Source: Oscillospiraceae bacterium (lineage in GTDB: Bacteria; Bacillota; Clostridia; Oscillospirales; Ruminococcaceae). From it: DNA of 64,000 nucleotides. This document shows positions 7,316-56,255 of this stretch, piece by piece. The stretch spans positions 23,696 through 87,695 of the forward strand of contig WRKZ01000001.1 in the NCBI GenBank assembly GCA_009777835.1, written 5' to 3'. The position numbers and the translations under genes are program-made. The notes below the pieces were generated by a model. That model worked only from the letters and a program-made list of their open reading frames with translations. It was not told the origin of the DNA and did no database searches. Positions within the stretch are counted from its first letter, which is position 1. Each line of letters opens with the position of its first letter.

Positions 7316-8011
7316 ATGGTTGAATTGAAAAACGTTGAGGTTCATTACGGTGAAACCGGAATCGATGCGTTGAACGATGTGAATATTCGCATTAACGACG
7401 GTGAGTTCGTGTTTATTGTCGGTGATTCCGGTGCGGGGAAGTCCACCATGCTCAAACTGCTTACCAATGAGCTTTCGCCGACAAAAGGCAGGGTTTTCGT
7501 GAACGGGTACAACCTGTCTAAACTGAAGAAGAGCAAACTCCCTAAGTTTCGGCGTTCAATCGGGATGGTGTTCCAGGATTTCCGATTGATTCCCGATATG
7601 ACTGTTTTTGAGAATGTTGCGTTCGTGTTGCGGGCAACCGATAAATCAAAGAAGGTGATTCGTCAGCGGGTTCCGTACGTGCTGAATCTCGTGAAACTCG
7701 CCGACCGGGCAAAATCGTATCCGTCGCAGCTTTCCGGCGGCGAACGCCAGAGGGTGGGAATCGCACGGGCATTCGCCACCGACCCCGGGCTGATTATCGC
7801 GGACGAGCCTACGGGAAACATCGACCCGCGGCTTTCTTACGAAATAGTCGAGCTGTTGTTGGACATTAACAAATGCGGCGCGACGGTCATTATGGTAACG
7901 CATGAGCATGATTTAGTCCAGTATTTCGGCGGGCGAATCATTAATTTGAAAGGCGGTCGGGTCGTATTTGACGATTATATCGGCGGCAGGGGCACGGGAG
8001 AAGAAGTTTGA
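7316..8011 (+). CDS. ftsE: Cell division ATP-binding protein FtsE
   Basis: GDSGAGKST, LSGGERQR, ADEPTGNID; adjacent to ftsX. Confidence 0.93.
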   Translation: MVELKNVEVHYGETGIDALNDVNIRINDGEFVFIVGDSGAGKSTMLKLLTNELSPTKGRVFVNGYNLSKLKKSKLPKFRRSIGMVFQDFRLIPDMTVFENVAFVLRATDKSKKVIRQRVPYVLNLVKLADRAKSYPSQLSGGERQRVGIARAFATDPGLIIADEPTGNIDPRLSYEIVELLLDINKCGATVIMVTHEHDLVQYFGGRIINLKGGRVVFDDYIGGRGTGEEV

Positions 8012-8048
8012 ATGTCATGCCACGTTTGTGGTAGAAAGGCATGGTCAT
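8006..8048 (+). promoter_or_regulatory. Shared leader element, copy 1 (ahead of ftsX)
   Basis: gtttgaatgtcatgccacgtttgtggtagaaaggcatggtcat; 40 of 41 aligned bases match the spoIIIAC copy, plus two 1-nt insertions. Confidence 0.8.
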
Positions 8049-8053
8049 TAAGT

Positions 8054-8971
8054 ATGAGATGGAGTAATTTTACGTATCTTGTAAAGAAGGGCGTTAATTC
8101 GGTTTGGTATAACCGAATGATGTCGTTCGCTTCGTTTTGCGTTCTGTTGGTGAGCCTGCTTATGGTGGGGCTGGCAGTTCTTGCGGCGGTGAATATAAAC
8201 GTGATTTTGAGTTATGTCGAGAATCAGAACGAGATTCTTGTCTTTGCATACGGGGACTTACCCGACAGTGATAACAATCGAATCACAGCAGAATTGCAAG
8301 GAAGTCGTTACGTTTCCCCCGGCGGGGTGGTGTTCAAGTCCAAAGAAAGGGCATGGGAAGAGTACCGCGAACAGTATCCCAATGCAGGTTCGTTGTATGA
8401 ACGCATGGAGCATATGGATTATAATCCCATGCCGAATACTTTTATCGTGACAATCAACGATTTGAGCGGAATCAAGAATGCCGAACGCACCTTCCGTGAA
8501 ATTGACGGGGTTCGTGAGGTTGCTGCCCCGCATGACTTCGCCGAGTTTCTCGTAAAAATCCGAAACACGCTGACTATTATCGGCGGTGCGGTAATCCTGG
8601 CTTTGGTGATTGTCTGCCTCGTTATAATCTACAACTCTTCAAGGGCGAGCGTTTTTGCGCGAAGGCAGGAAATCAATATCATGAAGTATGTCGGTGCGAC
8701 CAACGCTTTCGTGAAGTTTCCCTTTTTGATTGAGGGATTGTTCATCGGGATTTTAGCCGGTGTAGCTTCGTGGGGGTTGACTACCGTTGCGTATAACTCG
8801 ATTATTTCGATGTTCGGCAACGATTATATGCTTTGGCAGGTACTCGGCTTGGGCGAATTGATTGCGTTCAGCGATATTTCGTGGTACGTTCTCGCCGCGA
8901 ACTGCGCCGCAGGCTCACTCTTGAGTGCGACCGGCACGATTATGAACATGGGCAAACATCTGAAAGTCTAG
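8054..8971 (+). CDS. ftsX: Cell division permease FtsX
   Basis: N-terminal ..YLVKKG...NRMMSFAS, RRQEINIMKYVGAT, PFLIEG, four TM segments. Confidence 0.92.
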   Translation: MRWSNFTYLVKKGVNSVWYNRMMSFASFCVLLVSLLMVGLAVLAAVNINVILSYVENQNEILVFAYGDLPDSDNNRITAELQGSRYVSPGGVVFKSKERAWEEYREQYPNAGSLYERMEHMDYNPMPNTFIVTINDLSGIKNAERTFREIDGVREVAAPHDFAEFLVKIRNTLTIIGGAVILALVIVCLVIIYNSSRASVFARRQEINIMKYVGATNAFVKFPFLIEGLFIGILAGVASWGLTTVAYNSIISMFGNDYMLWQVLGLGELIAFSDISWYVLAANCAAGSLLSATGTIMNMGKHLKV

Positions 8972-25304: not shown

Positions 25305-25454
25305 GCTCTTGTTTAGCTTTCAGCCTCGTCAAGCTCACCTGCTCGACGACGAAGTTGCCGACCCGTGAGCTCTTGTTTAGCTTTCAGCTTCGTCAAGCTC
25401 ACCTGCTCGACGACGAAGTCGCCGACCCCGTGAGCTCTTGTTTAGCTTTTAGCT
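25305..25454. repeat. Repeat family A: 2.3 tandem copies of a 64-65-bp palindromic unit
   Basis: Units start at 25305, 25369 and 25434 (gctcttgtttagctttcagc..gtcaagctcacctgctcgacgacgaag..gccgaccc..gtga). Confidence 0.9.
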
Positions 25455-28479: not shown

Positions 28480-28552
28480 GGGGGTATAGCGCAGTTGGGA
28501 GCGCGTCTGACTGGCAGTCAGAAGGTCAGGGGTTCGAATCCCCTTATCTCCA
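28480..28552 (+). tRNA. tRNA-Ala(GGC)
   Basis: Full cloverleaf: acceptor GGGGGTA/TATCTCC with G3-U70, anticodon arm TCTGA-CTGGCAG-TCAGA, TTCGAAT loop; CCA not encoded. Confidence 0.97.
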
Positions 28553-28620: not shown

Positions 28621-28694
28621 TGCACCATCAGGGACTCGAACCCCGGACCTACCGGTTATGAGCCGGTAGCTCTAACCAACTGAGCTAATGGTGC
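28621..28694 (-). tRNA. tRNA with CAT anticodon, most likely tRNA-Ile2 (lysidine type)
   Basis: GCACCAT/ATGGTGC acceptor, ACCGG-CTCATAA-CCGGT arm; loop CTCATAA resembles Firmicutes Ile2 rather than elongator Met (TTCATAC); paired position 1-72 excludes initiator. Confidence 0.9.
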
Positions 28695-28739
28695 TATTAT
28701 ACTGCTTGTCGGACAAAAAATCCCTGATTTTTATTGAAA

Positions 28740-28827
28740 GTAAGGGTGTAATACCCCGCCCCTTGGGGCGGCACTCTCGCCCGCAGGGCGAGGTGTGCAG
28801 GGCTTGCCCTGCGGTGTTACCTTACAT
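28740..28827. repeat. Repeat family B (MITE/REP-like, about 87 bp), copy 1
   Basis: Highly similar to 50773-50858; internal hairpins ctcgcccgcagggcgag and cagggcttgccctg; gtaagg/ccttac ends. Confidence 0.85.
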
Positions 28828-39172: not shown

Positions 39173-40638
39173 ACGGTTACGATTTCCTCTCCTGCGATGA
39201 ACGCTTCGACGTTTGCAAGCAGTCGCGCGGAATACGCGCCTTTAGTTTTGTATAGATTGTTTCCGTTTATTCGGACGATGTTCATCAGATTAGACGATGC
39301 GTAGAACTCCAATACGTCGTTATCGCGTGATTTATCCCGATAAACGTATGAAATCCGCAGAATTAACTCTTCACCGCCGTCTTCGAAAAAAAGCTCATCT
39401 CCGCTTGCGCGAATGACAAATTCGTACAAATCCTTGAAGTCGGAGTTGCGTGCCGCCGCTAATTCTTCCCCATTTATAAGGAATGATTGTTGGTCGGTAT
39501 CACCGATTATCTCGAAATCGTAAGTGAGGGTATCGGTTTCGATTAAAAGCCTTTCGAGTGAGAAAATATACGGGGTGCAAATAACACTCGAAATAATATC
39601 CTTGGGCTGAACGTCAATCCAGGGAAGGGTTTCGGCGGCGAAGATAAAAACCACATCGGGGACTTCACTGCTCATACCGTATAACCTCGACGAGTCGATG
39701 CCTTGAACGGCATCCCCTATTATGAGGGTATATTTGCTGTCGGCGAATTCGACTTCAACCCTGCAGGAGGGTTCGCCCAACCCGGTGAATTCCATATCGA
39801 TTTCTTCGGGGCGAATCCAGGCTACTTCGGCAGCGGTCAGCCCGAAAATCCCGTAAATCGCGCTCGATGAACGTTCGGGATGCAAATCGGTGCTGATTGG
39901 TTCGGTTATTCGGTGGGTATTAAACGTGCGGCTTTCTTCTAACGGAAGTTGCGGCAAAGCCTCGATAATCAGCGGTGTTTCGGATTCATTCGGGCGGAAA
40001 ACCGTGACCCGCTCAATTACAGGTGTGGTAAAAGAATCATACTGTGGGAACGCCAGACGTTCGACCCAGTAATGACGTTCCCTCAGGAATCCCTCGGAAA
40101 CCCGCCCGGATAGTTCATAGACGTTTTCGTCACCCTCGACCATGAGGTATACGCCCGAGCCCACCGGAAGCGTTCCGCCCAGCGAGAACGCCAACTCCGT
40201 GCCGTCCCGAAAAGTTACCTTTATATTCGCGCGCGGGGAATCGCCTAATCCGTATTTGGCTAAATCTGAATTTTCAGTATTTTCTTCCACCGTCGAAACC
40301 GATGAAAGTGATGCCGCGTCGGCTGCCAGATTCAGCAAAGACAATTGATTATACGGAACGTTCTTACTCCTCACGTTGAGTTCGGGGATTGTGTACCCGT
40401 CGTTTCCGTCGGAGGAAACAGTGTATCCGTCTTTGTCAAGCAGATTGAAGAGGGTGATTTTCTCCACATCTTCGGGCAGGAAGTCGGCGAAGACGGTTTT
40501 CACTGAGGCAGGGACAGGTTCGGCAGGTTCGGGGTTGTCATCAGGTCGGGGTTGAGTAAAGTGGAGAATCAGGACAGTCGCGCCGAGAACTGCCACCCCG
40601 ATAAGTGAAATCAGCATGATTTGCAGATTATTTTTCAT
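39166..40638 (-). CDS. DUF4340 domain membrane-anchored protein
   Basis: Single TM; two copies of the L..YGL..P / FTGLGEP motif; follows a GldG-like gene. Confidence 0.8.
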   Translation of the reverse strand: MKNNLQIMLISLIGVAVLGATVLILHFTQPRPDDNPEPAEPVPASVKTVFADFLPEDVEKITLFNLLDKDGYTVSSDGNDGYTIPELNVRSKNVPYNQLSLLNLAADAASLSSVSTVEENTENSDLAKYGLGDSPRANIKVTFRDGTELAFSLGGTLPVGSGVYLMVEGDENVYELSGRVSEGFLRERHYWVERLAFPQYDSFTTPVIERVTVFRPNESETPLIIEALPQLPLEESRTFNTHRITEPISTDLHPERSSSAIYGIFGLTAAEVAWIRPEEIDMEFTGLGEPSCRVEVEFADSKYTLIIGDAVQGIDSSRLYGMSSEVPDVVFIFAAETLPWIDVQPKDIISSVICTPYIFSLERLLIETDTLTYDFEIIGDTDQQSFLINGEELAAARNSDFKDLYEFVIRASGDELFFEDGGEELILRISYVYRDKSRDNDVLEFYASSNLMNIVRINGNNLYKTKGAYSARLLANVEAFIAGEEIVTVW

Positions 40639-40687
40639 GTCTATGACCATTTCCTCTCTGAATACAAAAGTACAATGAATCTTTCAA

Positions 40688-42262
40688 TTAAATTCTGCTC
40701 CTTTTAAACCAGACGATTATTCCCGTAGCGACTACCGCCACCGGTAGGAACAGCATAAACACCAATGCGATTATTCGGGCATTTTCGGCAGTAATCTGGA
40801 ATGAAGTCACTATAAAAGATTTCGGAGCGACTGAGATGTTGACGGTTTTTCCGCTGATTGTTGCCATCATGTTTATGAAGAATCCGGTGTTATTGTTGTT
40901 GCGTTGTGCCATGAAGTATGGGTTCAGTGCGTTCCCGCCCCTTCTGCCGCCGCCGAACACGATTACGTTGCTCGTGATTTCTTTTGAGGTGAGTCCGTCG
41001 GTTTCGTATCTGATTTTACTGCTCTGAACTGCCACATCAAAAGCACCCTGCCTTGCCATATCGGGATTCCAGTCTACCCCCTCCGCCAACGCTTCAAACG
41101 GGAGGACTACCGAACCTTCGTACGAGGATAACAGTGAAAAAGTCCTCATGTTTGAGCGTTCTTCGAAAACCCGATTGACCTTCCGCATGAGTTCGCCGTG
41201 GATTTCGAAATTCGGGTTAAGTCGCTCAAGATATTCCTGCGGCTGATAATACTGAACATTAATCTGTAACGCTTGGTCGGCGGTGGCATATCGCGGGTCG
41301 CGCTGAAACACGAACGCACGCTCAACTTGGATTCCCCAGTGAGATTCCAAAAAAGCATCGAGATTGGGCGTACTCGCTGATTCATGCGTGATATAAATCA
41401 GCGTTTTGCCTAATAATCCGTCGTTATTGAGCCAGTTGTTCAGTTTTTCGAGTGCCGCATCGGTGTAATCGGCGGTAGGGGAGTCGATTATAATAAAATC
41501 CAACTCCGGTTCAATGGTTACGGTTTTCACCATGTCGATTTCGCTCACGTTATAGGCATTCATGCTGAGGAGTTCTTCCAGAAATTCGTTCTTGCTCTCG
41601 TTGAATCCGGTAACGGCGAATGCCACATGGGTCGGCTCAACGTCGCTTACCGCCAGAATCGCCGAGAGCAACTCACGTTCCGCCGCCGCCGAAACGTCGG
41701 TTTGTAACATTCCGTACATACTGTAAAAGCCTGCGTATTCTTCCGATACGGGGTTCCCGTCCGGGTCGAAATAGCTTACTTCGAGGTAATCGCCGTCGTT
41801 GAGGATGCGGTGGCGGAGGGTAGTTTTAGATTCCACTATGATTGAAGTAGGCGATAAAGCATTTTCGTACTTGTCGGCGAAATCCGGGTTTGAGGCTAAA
41901 TCAAGATAATGAATCGTGATTTTTCCGTTTGAGGCGGCGGCGAACCGTTTCAGGATTTCGTTGGTTTGGTTATAGAACTCGCTGAAACCGCCTTCGGTGA
42001 TGAAGTCATTCTCCCGACTTAATACGGTCAGCGTGACCTCATCGTCTAAATCCCGCAAGAAAGCTGCCGTATCTTCTTCAATCGAGAAAATTCGGTTCGC
42101 CGACGTATCGACTTTTACGTCAAACCGTTCGAGTAACATTCCCGCTATGATATTCACCAGTACTACCCCGGTTATGAAAATCACGGTGAGCAGAATTGAT
42201 AATCCGCCGTGCTTGAACTTCTTGCTTGTGAAAATTTTCGTAAATTTCTTGATGTTTTTCAT
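40688..42262 (-). CDS. GldG-like ABC transporter auxiliary component
   Basis: KHGG N-terminal TM, VDTSANRIFSI, SPTADYT, C-terminal TM ending WFKRSR. Confidence 0.85.
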   Translation of the reverse strand: MKNIKKFTKIFTSKKFKHGGLSILLTVIFITGVVLVNIIAGMLLERFDVKVDTSANRIFSIEEDTAAFLRDLDDEVTLTVLSRENDFITEGGFSEFYNQTNEILKRFAAASNGKITIHYLDLASNPDFADKYENALSPTSIIVESKTTLRHRILNDGDYLEVSYFDPDGNPVSEEYAGFYSMYGMLQTDVSAAAERELLSAILAVSDVEPTHVAFAVTGFNESKNEFLEELLSMNAYNVSEIDMVKTVTIEPELDFIIIDSPTADYTDAALEKLNNWLNNDGLLGKTLIYITHESASTPNLDAFLESHWGIQVERAFVFQRDPRYATADQALQINVQYYQPQEYLERLNPNFEIHGELMRKVNRVFEERSNMRTFSLLSSYEGSVVLPFEALAEGVDWNPDMARQGAFDVAVQSSKIRYETDGLTSKEITSNVIVFGGGRRGGNALNPYFMAQRNNNNTGFFINMMATISGKTVNISVAPKSFIVTSFQITAENARIIALVFMLFLPVAVVATGIIVWFKRSRI

Positions 42263-44783: not shown

Positions 44784-45015
44784 AGAATGGGGGATTCTCC
44801 CCCAAACCCCCTGTCGCTTCGCAGGGAAACCCTGCTTCGCTCCCTAAAGAATGGGGCTTCGCCCCAAACCCCCTCACCTGCGGAGGCAGAGCCGCCTTGG
44901 TTCCCTAAAGAATGGGGGATTCTCCCCCAAACCCCCTGTCGCTTCGCAGGGAAACCCTGCTTCGCTCCCTAAAGAATGGGGGCTTCGCCCCAAACCCCCT
45001 GTCGCTTCGCTCCCT
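44784..45015. repeat. Repeat family C: BIME-like mosaic of four palindromic units
   Basis: Units of 64, 61, 64 and about 43 bp at 44784, 44848, 44909 and 44973, each agaatgggg-hairpin-cccaaaccccct; units 1 and 3 identical. Confidence 0.92.
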
Positions 45016-45674: not shown

Positions 45675-48600
45675 ATGAGAAAAAGAAGATTGCTTGCAAT
45701 CCTCGTGACTGTGTCGATGGTGTTATCACTGTTTACCATGTTTACGAGTGCAAGCGACGCTGTTCGTGACACTGTAACCCGTGAATGGGGCTATGTGAAC
45801 GAATATGAATACGAAATCGATGTCAAAGTTGATTTCGGCGGCAACGTTGCTTTTGCTGTTGGCGATAAGGTAAACCTTAGTGCCGTTGATGCTGATAGTT
45901 TCGTTGCTGAAAAAGCTGACTCCTCTCCTAAAGCATTTACGGTCAGCGGCGCAAAAATTAGCGGAAACAACCGCACACAGGAAATTGCTACCGATTCTTT
46001 CGGTTGGGAAGTTTTCACTGTTGTCGGTACTGCTAATGACAGAATTACCGCGGGAAGCCGTTCTTCTCTTACTTTCACCTTAGTTGGTAAGTTCGAGGCC
46101 GACCTTTACAACGGTACTTACGAAGTGGATGACATCCAGATTGTTGATGATTTCTTTGCTCAACTCGTTCTCGGTGAATCCCCTGAAGAAGAAGAAATCG
46201 ATTTCGTGTACGCTGAAGACGATGACGGCATTGATGAAATCATTTTCGTTACCGATGTACGTGCAACCGCTACCAAAGTTGCTCTTGAAGACGTTGTTGA
46301 CAATGGGTCGGATTTCATCGGTAACTCTGACCTCGGTCTGTACGGCGATTACGGTGATGGAATCTTCACCCTTAAAATGAAAGGGATTGAATGGGACGAA
46401 GCACCTTTCATTTTCGGTGCTGACGCTGTAGTTCTTGACCTTGATTTCGTTGGACGTAACTTAGGAAATTCCGGGAATAGTGACCCTAACTACGACTTAC
46501 TCGTATGGACTGACATTTTCGAACTTGCTAATGCTGATGATAACGGCGACTTCGATATTGAAGAGTTCATTGATGAAGTTGTGAGAGTACGTATTCCTAA
46601 ACCTGCAAATGCAAACGCAAACCTCGGAACACTTAGTGCAGAACTCCCTGTTGATTATCTTTACTGCGAAAGCGATGATGACGGCTACGAACAAGTAGAA
46701 GAAATCTACTTTGCTGTTGTAAATCGTGTAGCTAAAAAAGATGATACTTGGGCAACCGTGGTTATCGAAGACGTTCTCGGTGAAGATACCCCGGACTCTG
46801 CAGAAAACCAACTGTTCGGTGCTACCCTCACTATCGAAGGTGAGTACCTGCTCATCGGCGTTCCTGAAGGCGAAGGCGAAGTTACCCGCTCTTACGGATA
46901 CGTAAATGAGTACGAATACGAAATTGATGTAAAAATCGATTTCGGTGGAGAAGTATTTTTCGCTGTCTCTGACGCGGTTGAACTCGACGGCGGATTTAAT
47001 GCCGCAGTTGCTGAAGAACTTGCTACTCTGGAAGCTACAATGGCTGTCGAAACCGCTGCTTATGATGCCGCTTCGGCATCTGAAGAAACCGTTACTAGCG
47101 TTATGACTTCGGCTTCTACGGATGAGTCTTCCGCTAGAACCGCTGCGACATCCGCTTCTAACGCTGCTGCCGATGCTAGCGCATCTCTCGTTTCGGAATC
47201 GGTTGCTGGTAATAATACTTCTGCTTTTTCTAGTGCTTACGCTAGTGCACTCGTTGATGTCGCATCGGCAGAAGCTGCTGTAGCCTCTGCTTCCAGTGCG
47301 TACTCAAGTGCTTCGGTGGCTAGTGACTCTCTGGACGTTGCTATGACCAGTGCTTCTACCGCATACGATAATGCTTCTTCCAGTGCAAGCTCCATCGAAG
47401 ACGAAGCTGACCGTGTTTTCGTAGTTGCTGCTGACGAAGACGAAAACGAATTCGAACTGACTGTAAGTGCTGTTAGAATCAGCGGAAACAGCCGTATGCA
47501 ACCTGCTGACAACACTGACCAGCTTGGTAGTGCTGACGCAAGAGAAAAAGGATTTGAATGGGATGTTGCCAGTGCTGTGGGTACACGTAATGACAGACTC
47601 ACCGCAGGAAACCGTTCTTATCTGACTTTCACTTTAATCGGTAATTTTGATTTAGACCTCTACAATGACGGATTTGACGTAGATAGCATCAAAATCGCTG
47701 AAGGATTCTTGGCTACCATTATATTTGATGAGGATTCATCGGAAACCCCATTCAAGTATAACAAAAATGTAAATGGTATTGATGACATCATCTCTGTATC
47801 GGCTGTTCGCAAGACCGGCGAAAAAGTTGCCCTTGATGACGTTGTTCTTTCTAAGGCTTCGAACACGAACAATGCAGGCGCATTCGACCTTACCGACGGT
47901 GTTACGACCCTTGAATTAGGTAGAATTCTGTTCAATGAAGCACCGTTCATCTTCGGTGCGGAATCCATTGTCCTTGACCTTGAATTCACAGAAAGAAACC
48001 TGAAGAACTTCAATACGGGCGATGATAACTATGACTTGCTCGTTTGGACTGATTTGTTTGAAGACGAAAACACAGAAGAAGGCGACACTTTTGACGTAAT
48101 GGATTTCCTTGGTGATGTTGTTAGATTCCGTATTCCGAGACCTTCTAACGCTAACACTAACCTCGGCGTTCTCAGCGTTGAACTTCCTGCTGAATTCTTC
48201 TCGAACGCAGACTTTAAACGCGCAAGCAAAATTTACTTCGCTGTAATTAACCGGGTTGTTGGGGAAAATGACACATTCGTTGATGTTGTTATCGAAGATG
48301 TTGTAGACGGAACCGACAACGCTCTCTGGGGCGCATCTCTCACCATTGAAGGTGAAGCTATTCGTCCTACAGTTCCTGTCAAAGAAAACTACGTTATCGA
48401 TGACATTTCCGAAAAAATCGGCGAAGACGGCAAAGTTGATTTAGCTGAATTAATCGCTGAAATCGGGGCAAACTACGACAAGGTTATACTTTCTGAAGAA
48501 GGCTTACTCGCTCTCGAAGAAGATTTGACCGTAGTTGTAGCAGAAGGAATCGAATACACGATTCTGGTAGACTCCATCGATGAAGACGCGATTGCTGAAG

Positions 48601-49493
48601 GATTCGTATTGAATTTCTCGGTAGTCAGCGAAAACTACGCAATCGAAGGATACTCCTTCGCAGAAGGCTCACTCGTGATTCTTCCCGGCGAAGTTGGCGA
48701 ATTCGGACTTGACATTGAACTGTTCGTATCGGCAGAACTCCTCGGCGAACTTGACGCAGCAGACATCAATCTGTACTATGTTTCCGGCGCGACTGTTTCT
48801 CTCATCAAAGACGGCGTTGAAGTCGTAGTTGAAGCTTGTGAAGAAGCAGAAGAAGACGAAGAGCATGATTGCGAAGAAGAAGAATGTGAACTCGCTGTTC
48901 TCGGCGTAAAAGTCGTACTCAGCAAAGCAAGCTTCTACGTACTCGCTGACGCTGCTCCTCAAGTAGAAGGTGACGTAACTGATACTACCACTTCTGACAC
49001 CGAAACCGAACCGACCGAAACCGAACCGACCGAAACCGAAACTTCGGCAACTGAAACCGAAACTTCGGGAACCGACACTTCCGTAAGCACTACTTCGGGA
49101 ACCGACACTTCCGTAAGCACTACTTCGGGAACTTCCGGAAGCAATGACGTTAACACTTCGGACACTTCGGACACTTCGGACACTTCCGGAACTGCTACTT
49201 CTGTAAGCGAATCCGATACTGAAGCTACTTCGGAAACTTCTGAAATTATTGAAGAAGGCTACAAAGTAGGTGACGTTAACGGTGACGAACAGATTACGAT
49301 TGCTGACGCACTCGAAATTCTGAAGTACTTGGCGAAAATGACGAGTACCCTCGACACAGAAGAAGGTCTTGAAGCGGGAAGAATCCTCGGCGCAACCGTA
49401 CCGGGAATCGGCGATGTTCTTGAAATCCTCAAATACCTCGCGAAAATGAACAACGCACTCGTTGATAATCACGATTGGGCACCCAGGGCGTAA
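45675..49493 (+). CDS. Large acidic secreted dockerin protein, candidate S-layer/major surface protein
   Basis: Signal peptide; duplicated ~370-aa unit; Ala/Ser insert; beta-rich domain ending ASFYVL; T/S/E linker; C-terminal GDVNGDEQITIADALEILKYLAKM dockerin. Confidence 0.8.
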   Translation: MRKRRLLAILVTVSMVLSLFTMFTSASDAVRDTVTREWGYVNEYEYEIDVKVDFGGNVAFAVGDKVNLSAVDADSFVAEKADSSPKAFTVSGAKISGNNRTQEIATDSFGWEVFTVVGTANDRITAGSRSSLTFTLVGKFEADLYNGTYEVDDIQIVDDFFAQLVLGESPEEEEIDFVYAEDDDGIDEIIFVTDVRATATKVALEDVVDNGSDFIGNSDLGLYGDYGDGIFTLKMKGIEWDEAPFIFGADAVVLDLDFVGRNLGNSGNSDPNYDLLVWTDIFELANADDNGDFDIEEFIDEVVRVRIPKPANANANLGTLSAELPVDYLYCESDDDGYEQVEEIYFAVVNRVAKKDDTWATVVIEDVLGEDTPDSAENQLFGATLTIEGEYLLIGVPEGEGEVTRSYGYVNEYEYEIDVKIDFGGEVFFAVSDAVELDGGFNAAVAEELATLEATMAVETAAYDAASASEETVTSVMTSASTDESSARTAATSASNAAADASASLVSESVAGNNTSAFSSAYASALVDVASAEAAVASASSAYSSASVASDSLDVAMTSASTAYDNASSSASSIEDEADRVFVVAADEDENEFELTVSAVRISGNSRMQPADNTDQLGSADAREKGFEWDVASAVGTRNDRLTAGNRSYLTFTLIGNFDLDLYNDGFDVDSIKIAEGFLATIIFDEDSSETPFKYNKNVNGIDDIISVSAVRKTGEKVALDDVVLSKASNTNNAGAFDLTDGVTTLELGRILFNEAPFIFGAESIVLDLEFTERNLKNFNTGDDNYDLLVWTDLFEDENTEEGDTFDVMDFLGDVVRFRIPRPSNANTNLGVLSVELPAEFFSNADFKRASKIYFAVINRVVGENDTFVDVVIEDVVDGTDNALWGASLTIEGEAIRPTVPVKENYVIDDISEKIGEDGKVDLAELIAEIGANYDKVILSEEGLLALEEDLTVVVAEGIEYTILVDSIDEDAIAEGFVLNFSVVSENYAIEGYSFAEGSLVILPGEVGEFGLDIELFVSAELLGELDAADINLYYVSGATVSLIKDGVEVVVEACEEAEEDEEHDCEEEECELAVLGVKVVLSKASFYVLADAAPQVEGDVTDTTTSDTETEPTETEPTETETSATETETSGTDTSVSTTSGTDTSVSTTSGTSGSNDVNTSDTSDTSDTSGTATSVSESDTEATSETSEIIEEGYKVGDVNGDEQITIADALEILKYLAKMTSTLDTEEGLEAGRILGATVPGIGDVLEILKYLAKMNNALVDNHDWAPRA
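49000..49200 (+). repeat. Nested short tandem repeats encoding the Thr/Ser/Glu linker
   Basis: 30-bp unit at 49062 and 49092; gaaaccgaaccgacc x2; acttcggac repeats. Confidence 0.85.
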
Positions 49494-49609
49494 CAGAAAC
49501 TAATTAGTCCCACACTCTCCGCGGGAGAGAGTAAAAAAATAAAAACAGATTTCGGGCGGGAAAACCGCTAATGACACCCGCCCGAAACAAAATTTGGAGG
49601 TAATTCAAA

Positions 49610-50326
49610 ATGAAAAAAATGGTAAAACTCATGTCAATAATCGTAGCTATCGCTATGATTGCTTCTCTCGCAGTTAGCGCATCCGCTTCTGCAGGCACTC
49701 CGAACACTGCCGGAGAAAAAGGAATCGTATTCGGTTTCGTAAACAATGACCCGACTAAGTTGGCACTTATCGTTCCGGACGGCGGAACTACCGGTATTGC
49801 CGGTTGGGGATTCGTTGACATCAAAATCGTTCCTCCTGCAGGCGGAACCATCAATGCACGTCCGTCAGCTGCTGACGAAGACCTTGACATCACTAACACC
49901 CCCGGTTCCAGCGTAGTTGAAGGCACCTACGGCGGCGGCGTTGTATTCCCTGAATTTTTTGCAGGCGGATTCGTTGTTGCAACTTGGAACGTAACCGGAA
50001 CCGGCGACTTCGTAATCACCGGTGACTACACTTATGACCCTGAAGGCGCTGATAATGAAGATTTCACATTGAACCTTACCGTAAGCAACGTATTCGGAAG
50101 CACCGAAACTACCGTTGCAACTCAAGAAACCGCTGCACCTACCGAAACAACTGAAGGCGGAACTGAAGAAGGAACTCAAGCAACTGCAGCTCCTACCGCA
50201 GCTCCTACCGCTGCTGCTACCACCACTTCGGGAACCACTCCTAAAGGCGGCGTAGCTCTCGCAATCATTCCTACTTTGGCAGCTGCCGGCGCAGCAGTCT
50301 TCGCAGCTTCCAGAAAAAGGAAGTAA
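49610..50326 (+). CDS. Sortase-signal surface protein with a ~135-aa beta domain (candidate cohesin/anchoring scaffoldin)
   Basis: Signal peptide, beta-strand domain, T/A/E linker, TPKGG-hydrophobic-RKRK tail; the cohesin call is a loose pattern match only. Confidence 0.65.
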   Translation: MKKMVKLMSIIVAIAMIASLAVSASASAGTPNTAGEKGIVFGFVNNDPTKLALIVPDGGTTGIAGWGFVDIKIVPPAGGTINARPSAADEDLDITNTPGSSVVEGTYGGGVVFPEFFAGGFVVATWNVTGTGDFVITGDYTYDPEGADNEDFTLNLTVSNVFGSTETTVATQETAAPTETTEGGTEEGTQATAAPTAAPTAAATTTSGTTPKGGVALAIIPTLAAAGAAVFAASRKRK

Positions 50327-50442
50327 GACTAACCTAATGTCAAGGCTTTGACATTGCAAACAGGTAATATGCGGGCGGTAGATTAGCTCTGCTGCCCGCT
50401 TTTACAACTAAAATTAGAGGGAAAATCTGGAGGAATACTAAC

Positions 50443-50718
50443 ATGAAATTGAGAAAAGTTTCTTCACTCGTGATTGCTATCGCTATGGCGGCTACTATGG
50501 CTGCAGCAGCAAGTGCGAGCGAAAACGAAACCGAAACCACTGCTGAAGAAACCACCGCTGCAACTGCTGCTACGACTGCAGCAACTACTGCCGGTGGAAC
50601 TGTTGCAGGTGGGGACAAAGACGGCGACCTCAAAACAGGTGTCGGCGGCGTGGCTATCCTCGGTGGAGTCGCTGTTATGGCGGCAGGTGCCGTTATAGTC
50701 GCGAAAAAGAGAAAGTAA
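50443..50718 (+). CDS. Minimal sortase-signal protein (Thr/Ala/Glu-rich mature peptide of about 40 aa)
   Basis: SD ggagg; signal peptide; DLKTG-hydrophobic-KKRK tail. Confidence 0.82.
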   Translation: MKLRKVSSLVIAIAMAATMAAAASASENETETTAEETTAATAATTAATTAGGTVAGGDKDGDLKTGVGGVAILGGVAVMAAGAVIVAKKRK

Positions 50719-50733
50719 TCGCATCACGCGATG

Positions 50734-50768
50734 AACGACGCCGGGATTTTTCCGGCGTCGTTTTATTG
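50734..50768 (+). terminator. Intrinsic terminator closing the surface-protein operon
   Basis: aacgacgccgg/ccggcgtcgtt stem followed by ttatt. Confidence 0.8.
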
Positions 50769-50772
50769 AAGA

Positions 50773-50858
50773 TAAGGGTGTAATACCCGCCCATTGGGGC
50801 AGTTCTCTCGCCCGTAGGGCGAGGGGTGCAGGGCTTGCCCTGCGGTGTTAGCTTACAT
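50773..50858. repeat. Repeat family B, copy 2
   Basis: Highly similar to 28741-28827. Confidence 0.85.
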
Positions 50859-51781: not shown

Positions 51782-51815
51782 AAAAAATACCGCTTGAATA
51801 AGGCGGTATTTTTTT
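51782..51815 (+). terminator. Intrinsic terminator
   Basis: aaaaaataccgc/gcggtatttttt. Confidence 0.8.
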
Positions 51816-51868
51816 GTTTGTGAGTGTTAAACTAGTGTCAAGTAAAGCAGTATTTTTAAAGAAATCAA

Positions 51869-52834
51869 GTGAGGAATCAAATGAGGAAATTTATAGCAAG
51901 TATTACAGCGGGATTAATTTCCGTGCTGTTTTTGACGACGATTGCAAGCGCAATTCAGTTTAGCCCTGAAAACAAAGACATCGAAATCGTGTATGGCGAA
52001 TTCACCGGATACAGATTCAACGGGCCGGAAGCCCCGGTTGGGGTGAACACCTCACAAATCGCGAAGGTGAAGTTCTATATCAAATGCCCCGACTTAGAGA
52101 CAATCGAAGAAGCGGTCGTGCAACTTGTATTCAATTCGGGGAGTACCGGTTGGGTCGAAACCGAACATGATTTGAACGACGGACTAATCGTCGAAGTGGA
52201 GGTTGACGGTGTAGTCGAAGGTGATTTCTTCGATGCGGCGTTGGGAACCTGGAACGAAGAAGTTTGGGGAACGTTCTCGGTAGAATTGCTCAACTCGGCA
52301 GGAGGAGTCATCGGAACGCCGGTTTACCCCGACAATGAACCCGAAGTCACCGAGACCGAACCGGAATTCACCACGTCGGAACTTATGAAAGACGGAGTGA
52401 ACACCGAAGAAACGAGTGAAGAAATGACCGAAGAAATGACCGAAGAATCCATCGAGGAAACCATGCCTGAATTTACCGAACATGAAACCACCGAGACTCA
52501 TCACGAAATGACCGAACCGGAAGAAACAGTCGCCCCTAAAGACGGGACTTTCGCCCCGGTGACTACCACCATGTTCGAGACTGTAGCGGGCGCGCAAGAC
52601 AACGAAACCAACACCACCGAGACCGTTACGGAAACCATGAGCGAAGAAGAAGTCACCACCGTCCCGACCACCGAGGCAACGACAGCAGAGACTTCGCCTC
52701 ACAGCTCCGCGGCAATTCAAGGCGGAAATGAAACCGCGCCCAAGACCGGCAGTACGCATATCGCGACTGCGATTATCATCACGACACTTTCGGCAGTGAC
52801 AATCGCGACAACACGTAAGAAGAGGAATCCTTAG
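51869..52834 (+). CDS. Sortase-signal surface protein with a related CBM-like domain and a long T/E stalk
   Basis: Signal peptide; FNSGSTGWVETEH; Glu/Thr-rich stalk; APKTG-hydrophobic-RKKR tail. Confidence 0.8.
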   Translation: MRNQMRKFIASITAGLISVLFLTTIASAIQFSPENKDIEIVYGEFTGYRFNGPEAPVGVNTSQIAKVKFYIKCPDLETIEEAVVQLVFNSGSTGWVETEHDLNDGLIVEVEVDGVVEGDFFDAALGTWNEEVWGTFSVELLNSAGGVIGTPVYPDNEPEVTETEPEFTTSELMKDGVNTEETSEEMTEEMTEESIEETMPEFTEHETTETHHEMTEPEETVAPKDGTFAPVTTTMFETVAGAQDNETNTTETVTETMSEEEVTTVPTTEATTAETSPHSSAAIQGGNETAPKTGSTHIATAIIITTLSAVTIATTRKKRNP

Positions 52835-52845
52835 GAATCATAACA

Positions 52846-52878
52846 AAAACAAGAGCCGCAATCAGCGGCTCTTGTTTT
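52846..52878. terminator. Bidirectional terminator
   Basis: aaaacaagagccgc/gcggctcttgtttt. Confidence 0.85.
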
Positions 52879-52886
52879 CGTTACGC

Positions 52887-53471
52887 TCATCTTATTTCAA
52901 CGATTGTGATGTTTTCAACCGGGACGCTGACTTCGCTTAAGAGTGCGTCTTTGATTTTCGCGGCATCTTGTGCGGTAAGTCCGTCGGTACGGACGATTAT
53001 GTTCGTACCGCGTTCGGAAATGTAACACAGCACATCCGAGAATCCTTGTGCACGTAGGAGGGCTTCGACTTTAGCCTCACTTTCGATGAATCCGCCAAGG
53101 GAAAGTGCATCCCCGGCGATTGCCTGGATTTCCTCACCGCGAACGTCACCGCCTGATATAATGGTCTGGATAAATTCTTTGGCTTCATCACGGCTTTCGC
53201 GCTTTGAAATCCTCGCCTGGGCGAAAAACGCCGCAACATCATCGTCGAGTATGTCTGCTGAGACGAATTGCGTGTCACCATAGTTGGAGTTCCTGCCGGC
53301 TTGTTCCTCGCCCGCATTTTCGGAAGGGGTGGTGGAGGGCTGAACGTTCCTGTTTGCCGAGACCGCAAAGTTTACATAGACCGCTAACCCTAAAAGTAAA
53401 GCGAGTCCTGCGATTATGATTTGTTTTTTACCGATGATTACGTTGATTCGCGGAAGTTTGAATTTTCTCAT
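52887..53471 (-). CDS. spoIIIAH: Stage III sporulation protein AH
   Basis: LGLAVYVN TM, FFAQARI..RE.R, EAKVEALLRAQGFSD; last gene of the operon. Confidence 0.9.
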   Translation of the reverse strand: MRKFKLPRINVIIGKKQIIIAGLALLLGLAVYVNFAVSANRNVQPSTTPSENAGEEQAGRNSNYGDTQFVSADILDDDVAAFFAQARISKRESRDEAKEFIQTIISGGDVRGEEIQAIAGDALSLGGFIESEAKVEALLRAQGFSDVLCYISERGTNIIVRTDGLTAQDAAKIKDALLSEVSVPVENITIVEIR

Positions 53472-53510
53472 GTTAGTTTTCTCCTTTGGAATGTAAGATT
53501 AGTTTTTGTT

Positions 53511-53996
53511 TTAAGAAGTTACGCTGATTCTCGTTGTGTTGATTCCTAACACGCGTGAAACCAACTCAATGAGTTTCTGTTTGACGATTACGTTTTCGCC
53601 GCCTTCACAAACGATTGCCACCCCGCGGACTTTTGGGGTTATGACGGTTCTGACACCGCTCCCCCTCTCGGAATAGACGTTCTCGGAAAGGCTGTCTAAT
53701 GTAACGACGATTGTGAACTCCCCTACGCCGTCAATAGCGGAAATGGCCCTTTCAAGCTTTTGTTCGAGTCGCTTCTCGTATTCCTCATAAGCGGTGTAAT
53801 CCGAAACCGCCGCCGGGTTCGAGCCGCCTCGATCGTTCTGCGAAAACGCATCCGATACGAACAGCAGTGCAATCAATGCTAATGCGCCGACCAGCAGTGT
53901 TTTGAACGCTTTCTCATTCTTGAACAATGACCTAAAGTCAAAGACTTTGCTTTTCTTCTCCATGATTCCATGCCGCCCACCCTGCATATGCGGCAT
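53511..53996 (-). CDS. spoIIIAG: Stage III sporulation protein AG, short form (start 53996 or 53963)
   Basis: YEKRLEQKL...IDGVG...V.VTL, PKVRGVAIVCEGG, L.I...RISV. Confidence 0.85.
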   Translation of the reverse strand: MPHMQGGRHGIMEKKSKVFDFRSLFKNEKAFKTLLVGALALIALLFVSDAFSQNDRGGSNPAAVSDYTAYEEYEKRLEQKLERAISAIDGVGEFTIVVTLDSLSENVYSERGSGVRTVITPKVRGVAIVCEGGENVIVKQKLIELVSRVLGINTTRISVTS

Positions 53997-54025
53997 GGTG
54001 GTTAGTCCTTTCCTGTTTTTTAAGC

Positions 54026-54532
54026 TCACGCTTCGTCCGTCTTGAATTCCCCCGTGATTAATATTTCGTCTCCAACCTCCCTCTGAATGATTCGAAATGA
54101 CTCCCTGAGCCGCTCAATTTCTTCTTCATTCTCCTCATCCCCTTCCTTTGTGAGTACAACCCTAATTTCATTAATAGATATGCTGTACTTGTCTGAAATA
54201 TTAACGTTTACCGAAATTTGTCGTACGAAAATTTCTTCCTCGGCTAATATCCGGGTGAGTTGGTGGCTTATTTCCTTCTCGACTGCATGGGATTGCGCTT
54301 TGTTGTATTCCTCTTCGAAGTTGATGTACGGAATGTTGTCGAACAGCCCGTCGGTTTCAAATTCCGATGCGAAGTTGACCCGCCCGCTCGTGAAAAAGAA
54401 AGCGAATCCTGCAAGGAAAAAGCATGAGACCATGAAATCTGTCTGCTTTTTGGCAGAGCCTTCCGGCAATAACATTTTGAACAGGCTTAATGCAATCGCC
54501 ATTAAGCATACGTTTAGAAGAATTTCCCTCAT
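54026..54532 (-). CDS. spoIIIAF: Stage III sporulation protein AF
   Basis: Two N-terminal TM with MLLPEG; operon position. Confidence 0.75.
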   Translation of the reverse strand: MREILLNVCLMAIALSLFKMLLPEGSAKKQTDFMVSCFFLAGFAFFFTSGRVNFASEFETDGLFDNIPYINFEEEYNKAQSHAVEKEISHQLTRILAEEEIFVRQISVNVNISDKYSISINEIRVVLTKEGDEENEEEIERLRESFRIIQREVGDEILITGEFKTDEA

Positions 54533-54594
54533 TGTTATGACCATGCCTTTCCGCCACAAAGTGGCATGAATTCAAACCTGTCAAGCTCACCTGC
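54530..54594 (-). repeat. Shared leader element plus family A fragment ahead of spoIIIAF
   Basis: 64/65 identical to 56451-56515, including the start codon. Confidence 0.92.
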
Positions 54595-54619
54595 CGGCGG
54601 CTTGACGAAGCAAGCCCTG

Positions 54620-55780
54620 CTATGCTCCCCCAATGCGAATCATGAGTGCGACCGAAACTAACATAATCAGTGTAAAGCAGGAAATCATGGCTAAAATAAT
54701 CGAAAGTATATTCTCCCCGCTTTTGAGCAGTGAACCCAGTCGCGCCGCCCCGAACATTTCACCTACCGCTGCGGCGGCGGTTAGCGTGAATCGGAACACA
54801 AGCACCGACAGCAAAGACGGAAGACAGACCGCCGCAATCGCGACCATGCCGAATGCCCCGGTCGCGCTCTTAACCACTGTGAAGCTTCCGTTCACCACCG
54901 ATAAAGCATCCGAAATTGAGCCGCCGATAAACGGCACTCCTCCTGAAATGGTGAATTTTACCGCCCGCATCGCGACAGAGTCGGTACTCCCCGATACAAG
55001 GCTTTGAATCGTCAACAGCCCGACAAACAGCGTAGTGAGTAGTCCCAACGTCCAGACCACGAAGGTCTTTACCATATGGGCGAGACGTTCGGTCTTTAAA
55101 TCCGGGCTGACCGCCCCCGCAATCGAGACCCCTAAAATCGATACCGATAAAGGCATTAATGCCATTACCATGACCTGGCTGAAAATCTGTGCCGCCGCAA
55201 TGACCGCACCGTTGAACAGGTTCGCCGATACAAGTTGACCCATGACCGCCATTATTCCCGCCAGAATCGGAATAAAAGTCAACATGAATGCCCCCGCCGC
55301 CGTAAGGGTCTCGGTGGTGCGCATGACACATTCGGCGATTACCGCGCTCATAATCCCCGCCCCTGCGAGAACCCCCGCCATCTCGAAAGCGGTTACGGCA
55401 GAAGAACCCGATTTGGGGCCTGAAGCCGAGTCCCGCAGGGTCTCAGCAACCGCACACAGAAGAATCACCCCCGCCAAAGACATGAACATTTTCAGCGGCT
55501 TGGTGATTTCCTGTTTGAGGAGTGTCCATAATTCCGACAACACCGCCGTGAAGGTCAATTCAAGGGGCTTTGCTTCCTCCATGAATTCCTGCGCATCATC
55601 GGGGAGGGCTTCCAGCAATTCGTCTTGGTAAAGGTTGAGGTTTTCTTCTATATAGTTATTTAAATTTAGGGACACGATTTCGTTACGCTCATAGTCGTTT
55701 TCAACGACTATATTATTAGCAGAAGCCGAAAAAGTCGGCAGAATTATTACAAGAAGTATAATTGCGAACAGTTTTTTCAT
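54620..55780 (-). CDS. spoIIIAE: Stage III sporulation protein AE
   Basis: Multi-TM; PILAGIM, GLLT.Q, KFTISGGVPFIGGSISDA, VKSATGAFG. Confidence 0.92.
   Translation of the reverse strand: MKKLFAIILLVIILPTFSASANNIVVENDYERNEIVSLNLNNYIEENLNLYQDELLEALPDDAQEFMEEAKPLELTFTAVLSELWTLLKQEITKPLKMFMSLAGVILLCAVAETLRDSASGPKSGSSAVTAFEMAGVLAGAGIMSAVIAECVMRTTETLTAAGAFMLTFIPILAGIMAVMGQLVSANLFNGAVIAAAQIFSQVMVMALMPLSVSILGVSIAGAVSPDLKTERLAHMVKTFVVWTLGLLTTLFVGLLTIQSLVSGSTDSVAMRAVKFTISGGVPFIGGSISDALSVVNGSFTVVKSATGAFGMVAIAAVCLPSLLSVLVFRFTLTAAAAVGEMFGAARLGSLLKSGENILSIILAMISCFTLIMLVSVALMIRIGGA
55691..55711. repeat. 21-bp palindrome (family D) inside spoIIIAE
   Basis: atagtcgttttcaacgactat, identical to 61560-61580. 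Confidence 0.8.
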
Positions 55781-55810
55781 TTTCACTTCCCCTTTTTGAA
55801 TTTTTCTCAA

Positions 55811-56200
55811 TCAGGCGTTAATCAATCCCACGACAATATCCACCAGTCCTTTGAACAACGGAAGCGACACCAGAACAATCGCCAGTTTGCCCGCCATCTC
55901 GATTTTTGCGGCGATTGCCGTCTCACCGGAATCGCGGCAGGTGTCTCCCGCAAGTTGGGTTATATAGCAGATTGCTAATGCTTTCAGGAGTGCCGCACCA
56001 TAAACCGCATCGAGGCTTACGGTGTCGGTGAGTTCACGGATTAGCGTAAGTACCGGTGAAATCTGCCGAATTACGGCAAGCAGAATGACAATCCCCGCAA
56101 TCAGCGAGATGTATATGCCGAATTCGGGCTTGTACTGCTTTATGACTATAGAAAGCAGGGCAGCGATAATCCCCGCCCCGACAATCGGTATAAGTTCCAT
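55811..56200 (-). CDS. spoIIIAD: Stage III sporulation protein AD
   Basis: KQYKPEF, LLKAL.I.YITQ....CRDSGE.AIA.KIE.AGK. Confidence 0.93.
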   Translation of the reverse strand: MELIPIVGAGIIAALLSIVIKQYKPEFGIYISLIAGIVILLAVIRQISPVLTLIRELTDTVSLDAVYGAALLKALAICYITQLAGDTCRDSGETAIAAKIEMAGKLAIVLVSLPLFKGLVDIVVGLINA

Positions 56201-56255
56201 ATGACATGCCTCTTTCCGGTTGTTCCTTACATTTTTGACAGCTTTTCGGCTTACT

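Follow-up and report, generated by a model that had tools for sequence, protein, structure and literature searches.

Genes and cassette copies of the window

The DNA studied here, referred to as the window, is a stretch of 64,000 nucleotides (64 kb) from an Oscillospiraceae bacterium (GenBank assembly GCA_009777835.1, contig WRKZ01000001.1, positions 23,696 to 87,695 of the forward strand). A short repeated element lies directly in front of ftsX and of two genes of the spoIIIA operon, spoIIIAC and spoIIIAF. We call this element the cassette; it consists of a hairpin, a Shine-Dalgarno (SD) sequence, a spacer and an ATG start codon. An original prediction, made from the letters of the sequence, had described the three copies as a shared two-state leader. 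The genes and cassettes concerned are the following.

7316-8011, forward strand: ftsE (NCBIfam TIGR02673, 3e-79)
8004-8056, forward strand: cassette copy 1, an insertion at the ftsE-ftsX junction (ftsE and ftsX of relatives overlap)
8019-8023 and 8028-8032, forward strand: inner hairpin of copy 1, GCCAC, loop GTTT, GTGGT, preceded by TCAT (8015-8018)
8016-8021 and 8038-8043, forward strand: outer stem of copy 1, CATGCC with GGCATG
8033-8039, forward strand: SD sequence of copy 1, AGAAAGG
8041-8048, forward strand: 3' part of copy 1, ATGGTCAT, followed by the ftsX start ATG (8054-8056)
8054-8971, forward strand: ftsX, 305 aa from ATG 8054 (NCBIfam FtsX_Gpos, 1.7e-61)
56451-56503, reverse strand: cassette copy 2 at the spoIIIAB-spoIIIAC junction (covariance model 67.4 bits)
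56498-56491, reverse strand: 5' part of copy 2, GTTTGAAT, followed by TCAT (56490-56487)
56486-56482 and 56478-56474, reverse strand: inner hairpin of copy 2, GCCAC, TTT, GTGGC
56473-56467, reverse strand: SD sequence of copy 2, AGAAAGG, followed by ATGGTCAT (56465-56458) and the start ATG (56453-56451)
56256-56453, reverse strand: spoIIIAC, 65 aa (TIGR02848, 1e-23)
54530-54582, reverse strand: cassette copy 3 at the spoIIIAE-spoIIIAF junction (covariance model 67.8 bits)
54532-54530 and 54622-54620, reverse strand: start ATG of copy 3 and spoIIIAE stop TAG
54026-54532, reverse strand: spoIIIAF, 168 aa (operon position, a weak Pfam Spore_III_AF match below the gathering score, tblastn to relatives)
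40636-40690, reverse strand: diverged fourth cassette between an ABC_transp_aux gene (40688-42262) and a DUF4340 gene (Pfam)
40636-40690, reverse strand, layout: TAATTGAAAGATTCAT, T, GTAC, TTTT, GTAT, TCAGAGAGGAA, ATGGTCATAGAC, ATG (40638-40636)
53961-53997, reverse strand: variant ahead of spoIIIAG, hairpin CATGCCGC...GCGGCATG (53997-53969), GAATC, ATG (53963-53961)

The gene names given by the original prediction were correct. NCBIfam models matched ftsE, ftsX, spoIIIAA to spoIIIAE and spoIIIAG, while spoIIIAF was assigned by its position together with the weak Pfam match and spoIIIAH by operon position and Pfam. The start of ftsX was placed at ATG 8054 because most close FtsX homologues comprise 298-305 aa and span the full query. 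The stop codon TGA of ftsE (8009-8011) falls within the left end of copy 1, GTTTGAAT, and an in-frame ATG at 8012 immediately follows it.

The core of copy 1 (8006-8048, forward strand) reads GTTTGAATGTCATGCCACGTTTGTGGTAGAAAGGCATGGTCAT and that of copy 2 (56498-56458, reverse strand) GTTTGAATTCATGCCACTTTGTGGCAGAAAGGCATGGTCAT, from which copy 3 (54577-54537, reverse strand) deviates by GGCGG replacing GGCAG. The three look-alikes thus exist as predicted and form a real repeat far above chance: GAAAGGCATGGTCAT occurs three times in the window, compared to 0.14 expected occurrences. BLAST of the window against itself gave E-values of 1.6e-7 for copies 1 and 2, 8.6e-6 for copies 1 and 3, and 3e-27 for copies 2 and 3. 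The latter two are parts of a 65-nt repeat of 98% identity (56451-56515 and 54530-54594), which extends over the start ATG and, on the other side, 24 nt beyond the 5' end of the predicted core, and which stops exactly at the start ATG of spoIIIAC and spoIIIAF, respectively. The pattern CATGCC-N(8-24)-GGCATG was found four times versus 0.03 expected. Its fourth occurrence is the spoIIIAG hairpin (53969-53997), whose proposed arms CATGCCGC and GCGGCATG were confirmed. This variant folds at -19.7 kcal/mol (z = -2.9), and its GGGTGGGCGGCATGG part is similar to AGGTGGGGCGGCATGGTTATAAAAATG of a relative (L012), in which it belongs to the spoIIIAD-spoIIIAE cassette. The diverged fourth cassette gave E-values of 0.054 with nhmmer and of 4e-4 to 8e-4 with the covariance model. 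In total, four cassette copies and one variant reside within 64 kb.

The window corresponds to contig k141_1965820 of the ENA metagenome assembly ERZ27257348. A second contig from the same sample (ENA ERZ27257348 k141_927893, L005, 23.6 kb) matches the window from approximately 51800 to 60900, with the whole spoIIIA operon being identical; it may stem from a strain variant or from assembly redundancy. A 270-nt contig of an independent DNA run spans the ftsE-ftsX junction with one mismatch. On the basis of these two contigs, we concluded that the cassette junctions are not assembly artefacts. Only two sequencing runs contain the organism, both at low coverage, and the one RNA run in which some of the window occurs carries the label termite gut metagenome. 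No matching sequencing run was found with the 131-nt element itself as query.

Insertion of the cassette into gene junctions

The spoIIIA loci of relatives were gathered by a protein-alignment scan of metagenomes and by look-ups, and all junctions were compared. In 13 related loci the gap between spoIIIAE and spoIIIAF ranges from -4 to +5 (ATGA overlap or abutting genes), whereas it amounts to 87 nt in the window. The spoIIIAB-spoIIIAC gap is 10-23 nt in five close relatives compared to 113 nt in the window, and ftsE and ftsX, which in four relatives overlap by 4 or 14 nt, are here separated by 42 nt (from the stop codon to ATG 8054). Since the same junctions overlap or are short in most relatives, the cassette has to be regarded as a lineage-specific insertion. 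The native SD sequences of the relatives survive in the window upstream of the insert, namely GGGGG in the spoIIIAB-spoIIIAC spacer, GGG codons at the end of spoIIIAE and GGGAG at the end of ftsE. As the insert sits between the old SD and the ATG, GAAAGG of the cassette is the only SD sequence within reach of the start codon. Both the native SD and the stop-start coupling have been pushed 40-110 nt away from the start codon by the cassette.

A few relatives contain other, unrelated inserts at the spoIIIAB-spoIIIAC and spoIIIAE-spoIIIAF junctions, which look like insert hot spots in this clade. One type is a tandem array of the heptamer CAATTGA; a second type of cassette comprises a hairpin, then CCCTACAT, then an SD sequence and ATG. 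The loci with these other inserts are L013 and L018 (spoIIIAE-spoIIIAF), L011 (spoIIIAE-spoIIIAF) and again L013 (spoIIIAB-spoIIIAC). Furthermore, the ftsE-ftsX junction of L038 (1790-1925; JGI 3300038395, the same metagenome as L006) contains a stretch of N, bordered by a duplicated ATGAGATGGAGCAACTTC of the ftsX 5' end and by a new SD sequence, AAAGGAGG. It is either a different insertion at ftsE-ftsX or a scaffolding artefact.

Members of the cassette family and their placement at start codons

Cassettes were also identified in the relatives. L006 (73% SpoIIIAE identity) carries one at the spoIIIAB-spoIIIAC junction and one before spoIIIAA, approximately 95% identical to each other including an adjoining repeat, module B (see below). 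L012 has a cassette at spoIIIAB-spoIIIAC and a variant at spoIIIAD-spoIIIAE, L025 a cassette at spoIIIAF-spoIIIAG that is similar to the L012 copy, and L039 cassettes ahead of a PucR-like regulator gene and a HAD phosphatase gene. A hairpin-less form, TTTGAATTAAAGGATGGTTATAACAATG, whose TGA is the stop codon of spoIIIAB, lies at the spoIIIAB-spoIIIAC junction of L022. In a termite-gut metatranscriptome (run X2) core-like sequences with unrelated flanks were present in four to five contigs. Genes for an ATPase (spoIIIAA), a regulator and a phosphatase are thus among the targets, and the rule proposed in the original prediction that each copy precedes a gene for a membrane or envelope subunit had to be abandoned.

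The consensus of the family is TTCAT, a variable hairpin of 4-6 bp, (A)GA(A/G)AGG, 0-2 nt, ATGGTCATAA, 2 nt and ATG. A loose pattern for the 3' half hit 12 sites in 229 kb, 11 of which abut the start of a real open reading frame (ORF), while 1.85 sites were expected in shuffled sequences. A covariance model built from seven copies and run on approximately 100 kb of related loci detected ten members at E < 0.01, all ten in sense orientation and all ten ending at a start codon. We conclude that the cassette was copied to sites immediately 5' of start codons, always in sense orientation. A pattern scan of a genome collection (CATGCCN{10,14}GAAAGGCATGGTCAT) yielded three matches, which lie within coding sequence of unrelated taxa, lack the inner hairpin and were dismissed as chance.

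Eleven of 12 cassettes contain two in-frame ATG triplets exactly 12 nt apart (ATGGTCATAAnnATG; e.g., 56465-56451, 54544-54530 and 40650-40636), the first of which begins only 1-2 nt past the SD sequence. A spacing of 13 nt, which puts the two triplets out of frame, was encountered only in the ftsX copy.

Some copies of the same genome are nearly identical, whereas copies from different genomes differ, and secondary copies resemble the spoIIIAB-spoIIIAC copy of their own lineage. From this pattern we infer that copying has been recent and recurrent, the spoIIIAB-spoIIIAC copy being the likely source of the secondary copies in each lineage.

RNA structure of the cassette

The segment from TTCAT to the SD sequence folds as a hairpin in nine of ten members, with seven different inner stems (GCCAC, GUAC, GAGGU, GCAC, UGAGC, GCCU and UUGUAU). 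Tested against shuffled sequences, the inner hairpin gave a Fisher-combined p of ~2e-9. Four of its five pairs vary on both sides in the model-fitted alignment, and its covariation score of 0.296 compares to 0.159 in shuffles, none of 500 reaching the observed value; slid controls did not exceed 0.09. The G-U pair that had been proposed for the ftsX copy is correct (GCCAC/GUGGU).

The outer stem behaved differently. It consists of the closing contact UCAU:AUGG and three further pairs, which together make up CATGCC/GGCATG. The closing contact is paired in 87.5% but almost invariant, so that it speaks neither for nor against structure. Each of the additional pairs exists in three or four of nine members, and all three together occur only in the three window copies. 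L012 and L025 do not possess the outer stem, and L006 has only CAUA:UAUG. Its covariation score was equalled by 149 of 500 shuffles. Hence, of the covariance check suggested along with the original prediction and run on the family members, the part concerning the inner hairpin came out positive, while CATGCC/GGCATG does not covary. The alternative stem is a trait of the subfamily in this genome, not of the family.

Within the window copies the two stems do overlap, as had been predicted, the GCC of the 5' arm being common to both. The inner state (-6.3 to -7.1 kcal/mol) and the outer state (-8.0 to -8.1 kcal/mol) are near-isoenergetic, and which of them dominates varies with the amount of flank included. 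Opening of the SD sequence costs 1.2-3.2 kcal/mol in a 90-nt context. In the minimum-energy folds of L006 and L012 an upstream CUUUC pairs with GAAAG of the SD sequence. This anti-SD pairing was rejected as a family feature; it is weak in the window copies and out of register in both the MAFFT alignment and the covariance model. Some pairing close to the SD sequence thus recurs across the family, though the means differ from lineage to lineage.

Module B and other neighbouring features

Some cassettes adjoin module B, a repeat unrelated to them, in which the conserved arms GCTAAACAAGAGCTCAC and GTGAGCTTGAC enclose a GC-rich hairpin. It was found in the window at the following positions.

56499-56558, reverse strand: module B next to copy 2 (AAGTTTGAATAAGGGCTCAT, GC hairpin, GCAGGTGAGCTTGACAGG), between the spoIIIAB stop codon (56569-56567) and the cassette
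54583-54619, reverse strand: upstream of copy 3, hairpin GGCTTG CTTCGT CAAGCC and the right arm of module B, GCAGGTGAGCTTGAC
25305-25454, reverse strand: two tandem units of module B with a 64-nt period, after a gene end

Downstream of the tandem pair lies a degenerate AAAAGGAAGTCATAACCATG in the start region of an epimerase gene (start 25220). The GC hairpin shows compensatory A/G and T/C changes. Module B alone was present in at least eight other contexts, on both strands, in the termite-gut metatranscriptome (run X2) and in two contexts in a DNA run; at the spoIIIAE-spoIIIAF junction of L006 it occurs without a cassette.

Further repeats of the window are a 99-nt sequence at 28729-28827 and 50761-50858 (90% identity), which comprises three consecutive GC-rich hairpins and ends in GGTGTTACCTTACAT, and a tandem array of 61-64-nt units with hairpins of the GGGGG...CCCCC type immediately after a gene end (44784-45010). 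One copy of the 99-nt repeat adjoins two tRNA genes (28480-28552, forward strand, and 28621-28694, reverse strand). Paralogous coding segments with identities of 71-80% lie at 45774-47987 and 48991-50553, about 1.1 and 1.5 kb apart, and are followed by a low-complexity coding region of short repeats of the ACCGAA/ACTTCGGGAACC type. Segments and repeats together probably encode a repetitive surface protein.

Upstream of the spoIIIA operon, a strong intrinsic terminator (58053-58083, reverse strand; 14-bp stem and T run) closes the preceding gene for a solute-binding protein. The motif CATAGAAT at ~58025-58040 (reverse strand), which is kept as CATAGTAT in L006, is a candidate -10 box of the sigma-E type for the operon.

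Origin and function of the cassette

We interpret the three copies as paralogs of a repeated translation-initiation cassette that replaced native coupled junctions, and assign this interpretation a probability of roughly 60%. The cassette belongs exclusively to a clade of uncultured Oscillospiraceae from termite guts. Thus, of the readings offered in the original prediction, the third, a repeat recruited as a ribosome-binding site (RBS), is the one borne out by the data: most relatives lack the insertion, it lies before unrelated genes, and it ends at their start codons. Neither promoter-like nor terminator-like sites were found in the junctions. TTGACA within GAGCTTGACAGG had been considered as a -35 region and CATAACAAT as a -10 region of the sigma-E/sigma-K type; no partner hexamer lies at the right spacing. 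The promoter was also rejected because transcription from there would begin inside the gene. A leader peptide or N-terminal extension was discarded as well, as indels between copy 1 and copies 2 and 3 shift the frame, and FtsX homologues begin with MRWSNF. Because these indels alter the frame, conservation acts at the nucleotide level.

AGAAAGG is complementary to the very 3' terminus of the 16S rRNA of Firmicutes (CCUUUCU), and pairing that far 3' permits a longer spacing between SD sequence and start codon than the GGAGG core. Under the favoured interpretation, initiation of the downstream gene would now be driven by the cassette's own SD sequence, 13-14 nt from the ATG. The hairpin could shield this SD from the variable sequence upstream; the other option is that, together with a bound ribosome, it protects the 5' end arising from endonucleolytic cleavage of the operon mRNA, in which case module B, where present, might form a cap at the 3' terminus of the fragment preceding it. 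Exclusively in the ftsX copy, a ribosome terminating on ftsE may open the outer stem and thereby restore coupling. There the ftsE stop codon (8009-8011) is located 4 nt 5' of the outer stem, which spans ~8012 to 8048, and a coupling role is plausible for this copy alone.

Several points weigh against the cassette interpretation. The covariation was counted on an alignment fitted to the structure model, and the boundaries of the hairpin segments for the shuffle test were set with the hairpins already known. Folding z-scores of the whole element are weak (-0.5 to -1.3). Copy number and the share of copies located at start codons were extrapolated from approximately 230 kb, and this DNA had been gathered around genes picked because of the finding. 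The SD-to-ATG spacing is long but workable, lying at the long end of the known functional range. A possible 4-bp duplication, AAGT, flanks the ftsX copy only, and the alignment revealed no consistent terminal inverted repeats among the members. At the DUF4340 junction a relative of 44% protein identity (L043, 9960-10003) has AGAAAGGG, C, GTGACCGATAGC and GTG. The sequence is diverged and both ATG triplets are changed to GTG. As the layout with 13 nt between SD and start is nevertheless kept, at this locus a portion of the 3' half may be ancient and inherited vertically rather than mobile. Finally, RBS function explains neither the strong conservation of ATGGTCATAA nor the 12-nt spacing of the ATG triplets, which could point to a trans-acting factor.

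An RNA-binding protein or small RNA of this kind, marking a post-transcriptional regulon, would recognise the invariant UUCAU, GAAAGG and AUGGUCAUAA around the variable hairpin. Conserved unpaired sequence combined with a covarying stem is a typical architecture of protein-binding RNA, and ATGGTCATAA has been kept while the stems diverged. We still consider such a site distinctly improbable. The targets are mixed, belonging to the sporulation channel and division or encoding an ABC accessory protein, a regulator and a phosphatase; the near-identity of whole copies of the same genome, spacers included, indicates recent copying instead of convergence; and neither strand of the window contains a complementary small-RNA candidate. 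A CsrA site was rejected, too. The element resembles the CsrA consensus known from systematic evolution of ligands by exponential enrichment (SELEX), but the GGA of that consensus is not kept, the copies having GGC, GGU or GGA. The idea that GUCAUAAC might mimic the anticodon loop of initiator tRNA was dropped. The two-state switch put forward in the original prediction, in which upstream translation would shift the RNA between an SD-free form (inner hairpin) and an SD-occluded form (CAUGCC:GGCAUG), draws its support from the window copies. Their stems share GCC and are separated by ~1-1.7 kcal/mol, flanking context sets which one dominates, and the SD sequence is fully paired in the outer state (UUUG:CAGA plus CC:GG). 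The ftsX copy moreover took the place of an ancestral ATGA overlap, with the ftsE stop codon 4 nt before the stem, which grows to 11 bp there. As a general explanation the switch is nonetheless very improbable, given that its three defining pairs form together only in the window copies, that they do not covary, and that the stem is absent from L012 and L025 and reduced in L006. The upstream stop codon is separated by 113 nt from copy 2 and by 87 nt from copy 3, and a strong hairpin intervenes in both cases. Furthermore, cassettes of relatives precede spoIIIAA and the PucR-like gene, which are first genes without upstream translation, and the SD sequence is opened at little cost. Thus, a shared two-state switch is not supported as a property of the family: the outer stem lacks conservation, and in front of some copies no gene is translated.

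A small repeat that is selfish or neutral and has no function of its own, similar to miniature inverted-repeat transposable elements (MITEs) or REP sequences, would owe its bias towards start codons to the loss of insertions located elsewhere or lacking an SD sequence. Other hairpin repeats abound in the genome (module B, the pair at 28729/50761 and the array at 44784-45010), of which module B is dispersed over both strands in the metatranscriptome, and the distribution of the cassette among relatives is patchy. However, each of the ten covariance-model matches runs in sense orientation up to a start codon and stops exactly there, while a filter for tolerated insertions would also permit sites between a stop codon and the native SD sequence. 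Consistent terminal inverted repeats or target duplications are absent from the members compared, and the hairpin varies even within one genome, unlike hairpins recognised by transposases. As the native SD sequence has been displaced, that of the cassette must work for the downstream genes to be made. We therefore regard a neutral repeat as unlikely. In a more far-reaching proposal, to which we give a similarly small chance, the cassette acts in cis as a specialised RNA signal (UUCAU, hairpin, GAAAGG, N, AUGGUCAUAA, NN, AUG, usually with two in-frame AUGs 12 nt apart) that would be read by a dedicated factor or by a non-standard initiation or processing pathway and spread by copying aimed 5' of start codons. 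If true, it would be a mobile start-site module rewiring the translational control of operon-internal genes.

According to the cassette interpretation, a small module repeatedly replaced tight stop-start junctions, in the spoIIIA, ftsEX and ABC accessory operons. If the module is functional, the stoichiometry of an operon could be rewired by copying it instead of by point mutation, and the compact natural combination of hairpin, SD sequence and spacer would be a candidate intercistronic insulator in Firmicutes. The family comparison also guards against a misreading, since the two-state fold belongs to the copies of one genome and not to the family.

Comparison with known systems

Our literature search turned up no account of this element, nor any of intergenic repeats in termite-gut Oscillospiraceae. 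A scan against Rfam recovered only two tRNAs at the gathering score and nothing relevant at E <= 5 around the copies. ERIC sequences of Yersinia and the Correia/nemis elements of Neisseria are co-transcribed intergenic repeats that alter the fate of mRNA (De Gregorio et al., cited in PMC3184786). Like these and the REP/BIME sequences of E. coli, the cassette is a short hairpin repeat between co-transcribed genes, contained in the operon mRNA, and it might likewise change the relative expression of the flanking cistrons. The three known groups differ from it by terminal inverted repeats or a conserved palindrome; they occur in both orientations, downstream of stop codons or at any point of the spacer, and the start codon of the next gene is not part of them. 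The RAYT-associated REP/BIME palindrome with its fixed 5' tetranucleotide is found 3' of genes, whereas the cassette has seven stems and lies 5' of genes. Terminal inverted repeats as in MITEs are not seen, CATGCC/GGCATG being internal and limited to the window subfamily, and a possible target-site duplication, AAGT on both sides of the ftsX copy, has no counterpart at the other copies.

In a riboswitch-like two-state leader both pairings would be conserved or covary, while in the cassette the inner one covaries and the outer one does not. A translational-coupling hairpin has a stop codon within reach, which applies to the ftsX copy (4 nt), but not to copies 2 and 3 (113 and 87 nt) or to the cassettes before first genes, which have none. 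Stabilising leaders are known from Bacillus, where the STAB-SD of cryIIIA reads GAAAGGAGG and the ermC and aprE leaders carry 5' stem-loops; in Firmicutes an SD sequence of the GAAAGG type with a small adjacent hairpin protects RNA from 5' exonuclease. The cassette likewise pairs an SD sequence of this type, matching the 16S rRNA 3' end, with a small neighbouring hairpin. Unlike the cassette, the STAB-SD is not repeated and lies at a large distance from the start codon; the cassette may stabilise RNA in a comparable way. The plastid intercistronic expression element is a short element between cistrons that gives stable, translatable downstream units from an operon transcript (PMC2230500). It belongs to an unrelated system, has an unrelated sequence, requires a protein and does not occur naturally as a dispersed repeat; the analogy is purely functional.

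In layout, the closest described kind is Neisseria REP2 and the Borrelia plasmid IR, and we do not class the cassette as a member of either family. Homology with REP2 would not be expected between such unrelated phyla. To our knowledge, repeats with their own RBS and start codon have rarely been described, REP2 and IR being the examples. Both have internal stem-loops and no terminal inverted repeats, and carry an RBS and ATG fused to downstream ORFs (PMC3184786). They resemble a copied 5' untranslated region whose origin and proliferation are unexplained (Parkhill 2000; Morelle 2003; Dunn 1994; reviewed in Delihas 2011, PMC3184786). REP2 has a length of 120-150 bp and bears a promoter (PMC3184786), whereas the cassette, most copies of which are operon-internal, is without a promoter, no sigma-70-like site being present in the cassettes. 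Its core measures ~50 nt (~100 nt with module B), its hairpin sequence varies between copies, it stems from a Gram-positive lineage and it was placed between a native SD sequence and the ATG. REP2 and IR possess two stem-loops; the cassette core has one conserved hairpin, and two are present only in conjunction with module B (copies 2 and 3 and both copies of L006). In common with them, the cassette is a multi-copy intergenic element without consistent terminal inverted repeats, and it contributes an RBS and an ATG that are fused to the downstream ORF, all copies ending at the start ATG.

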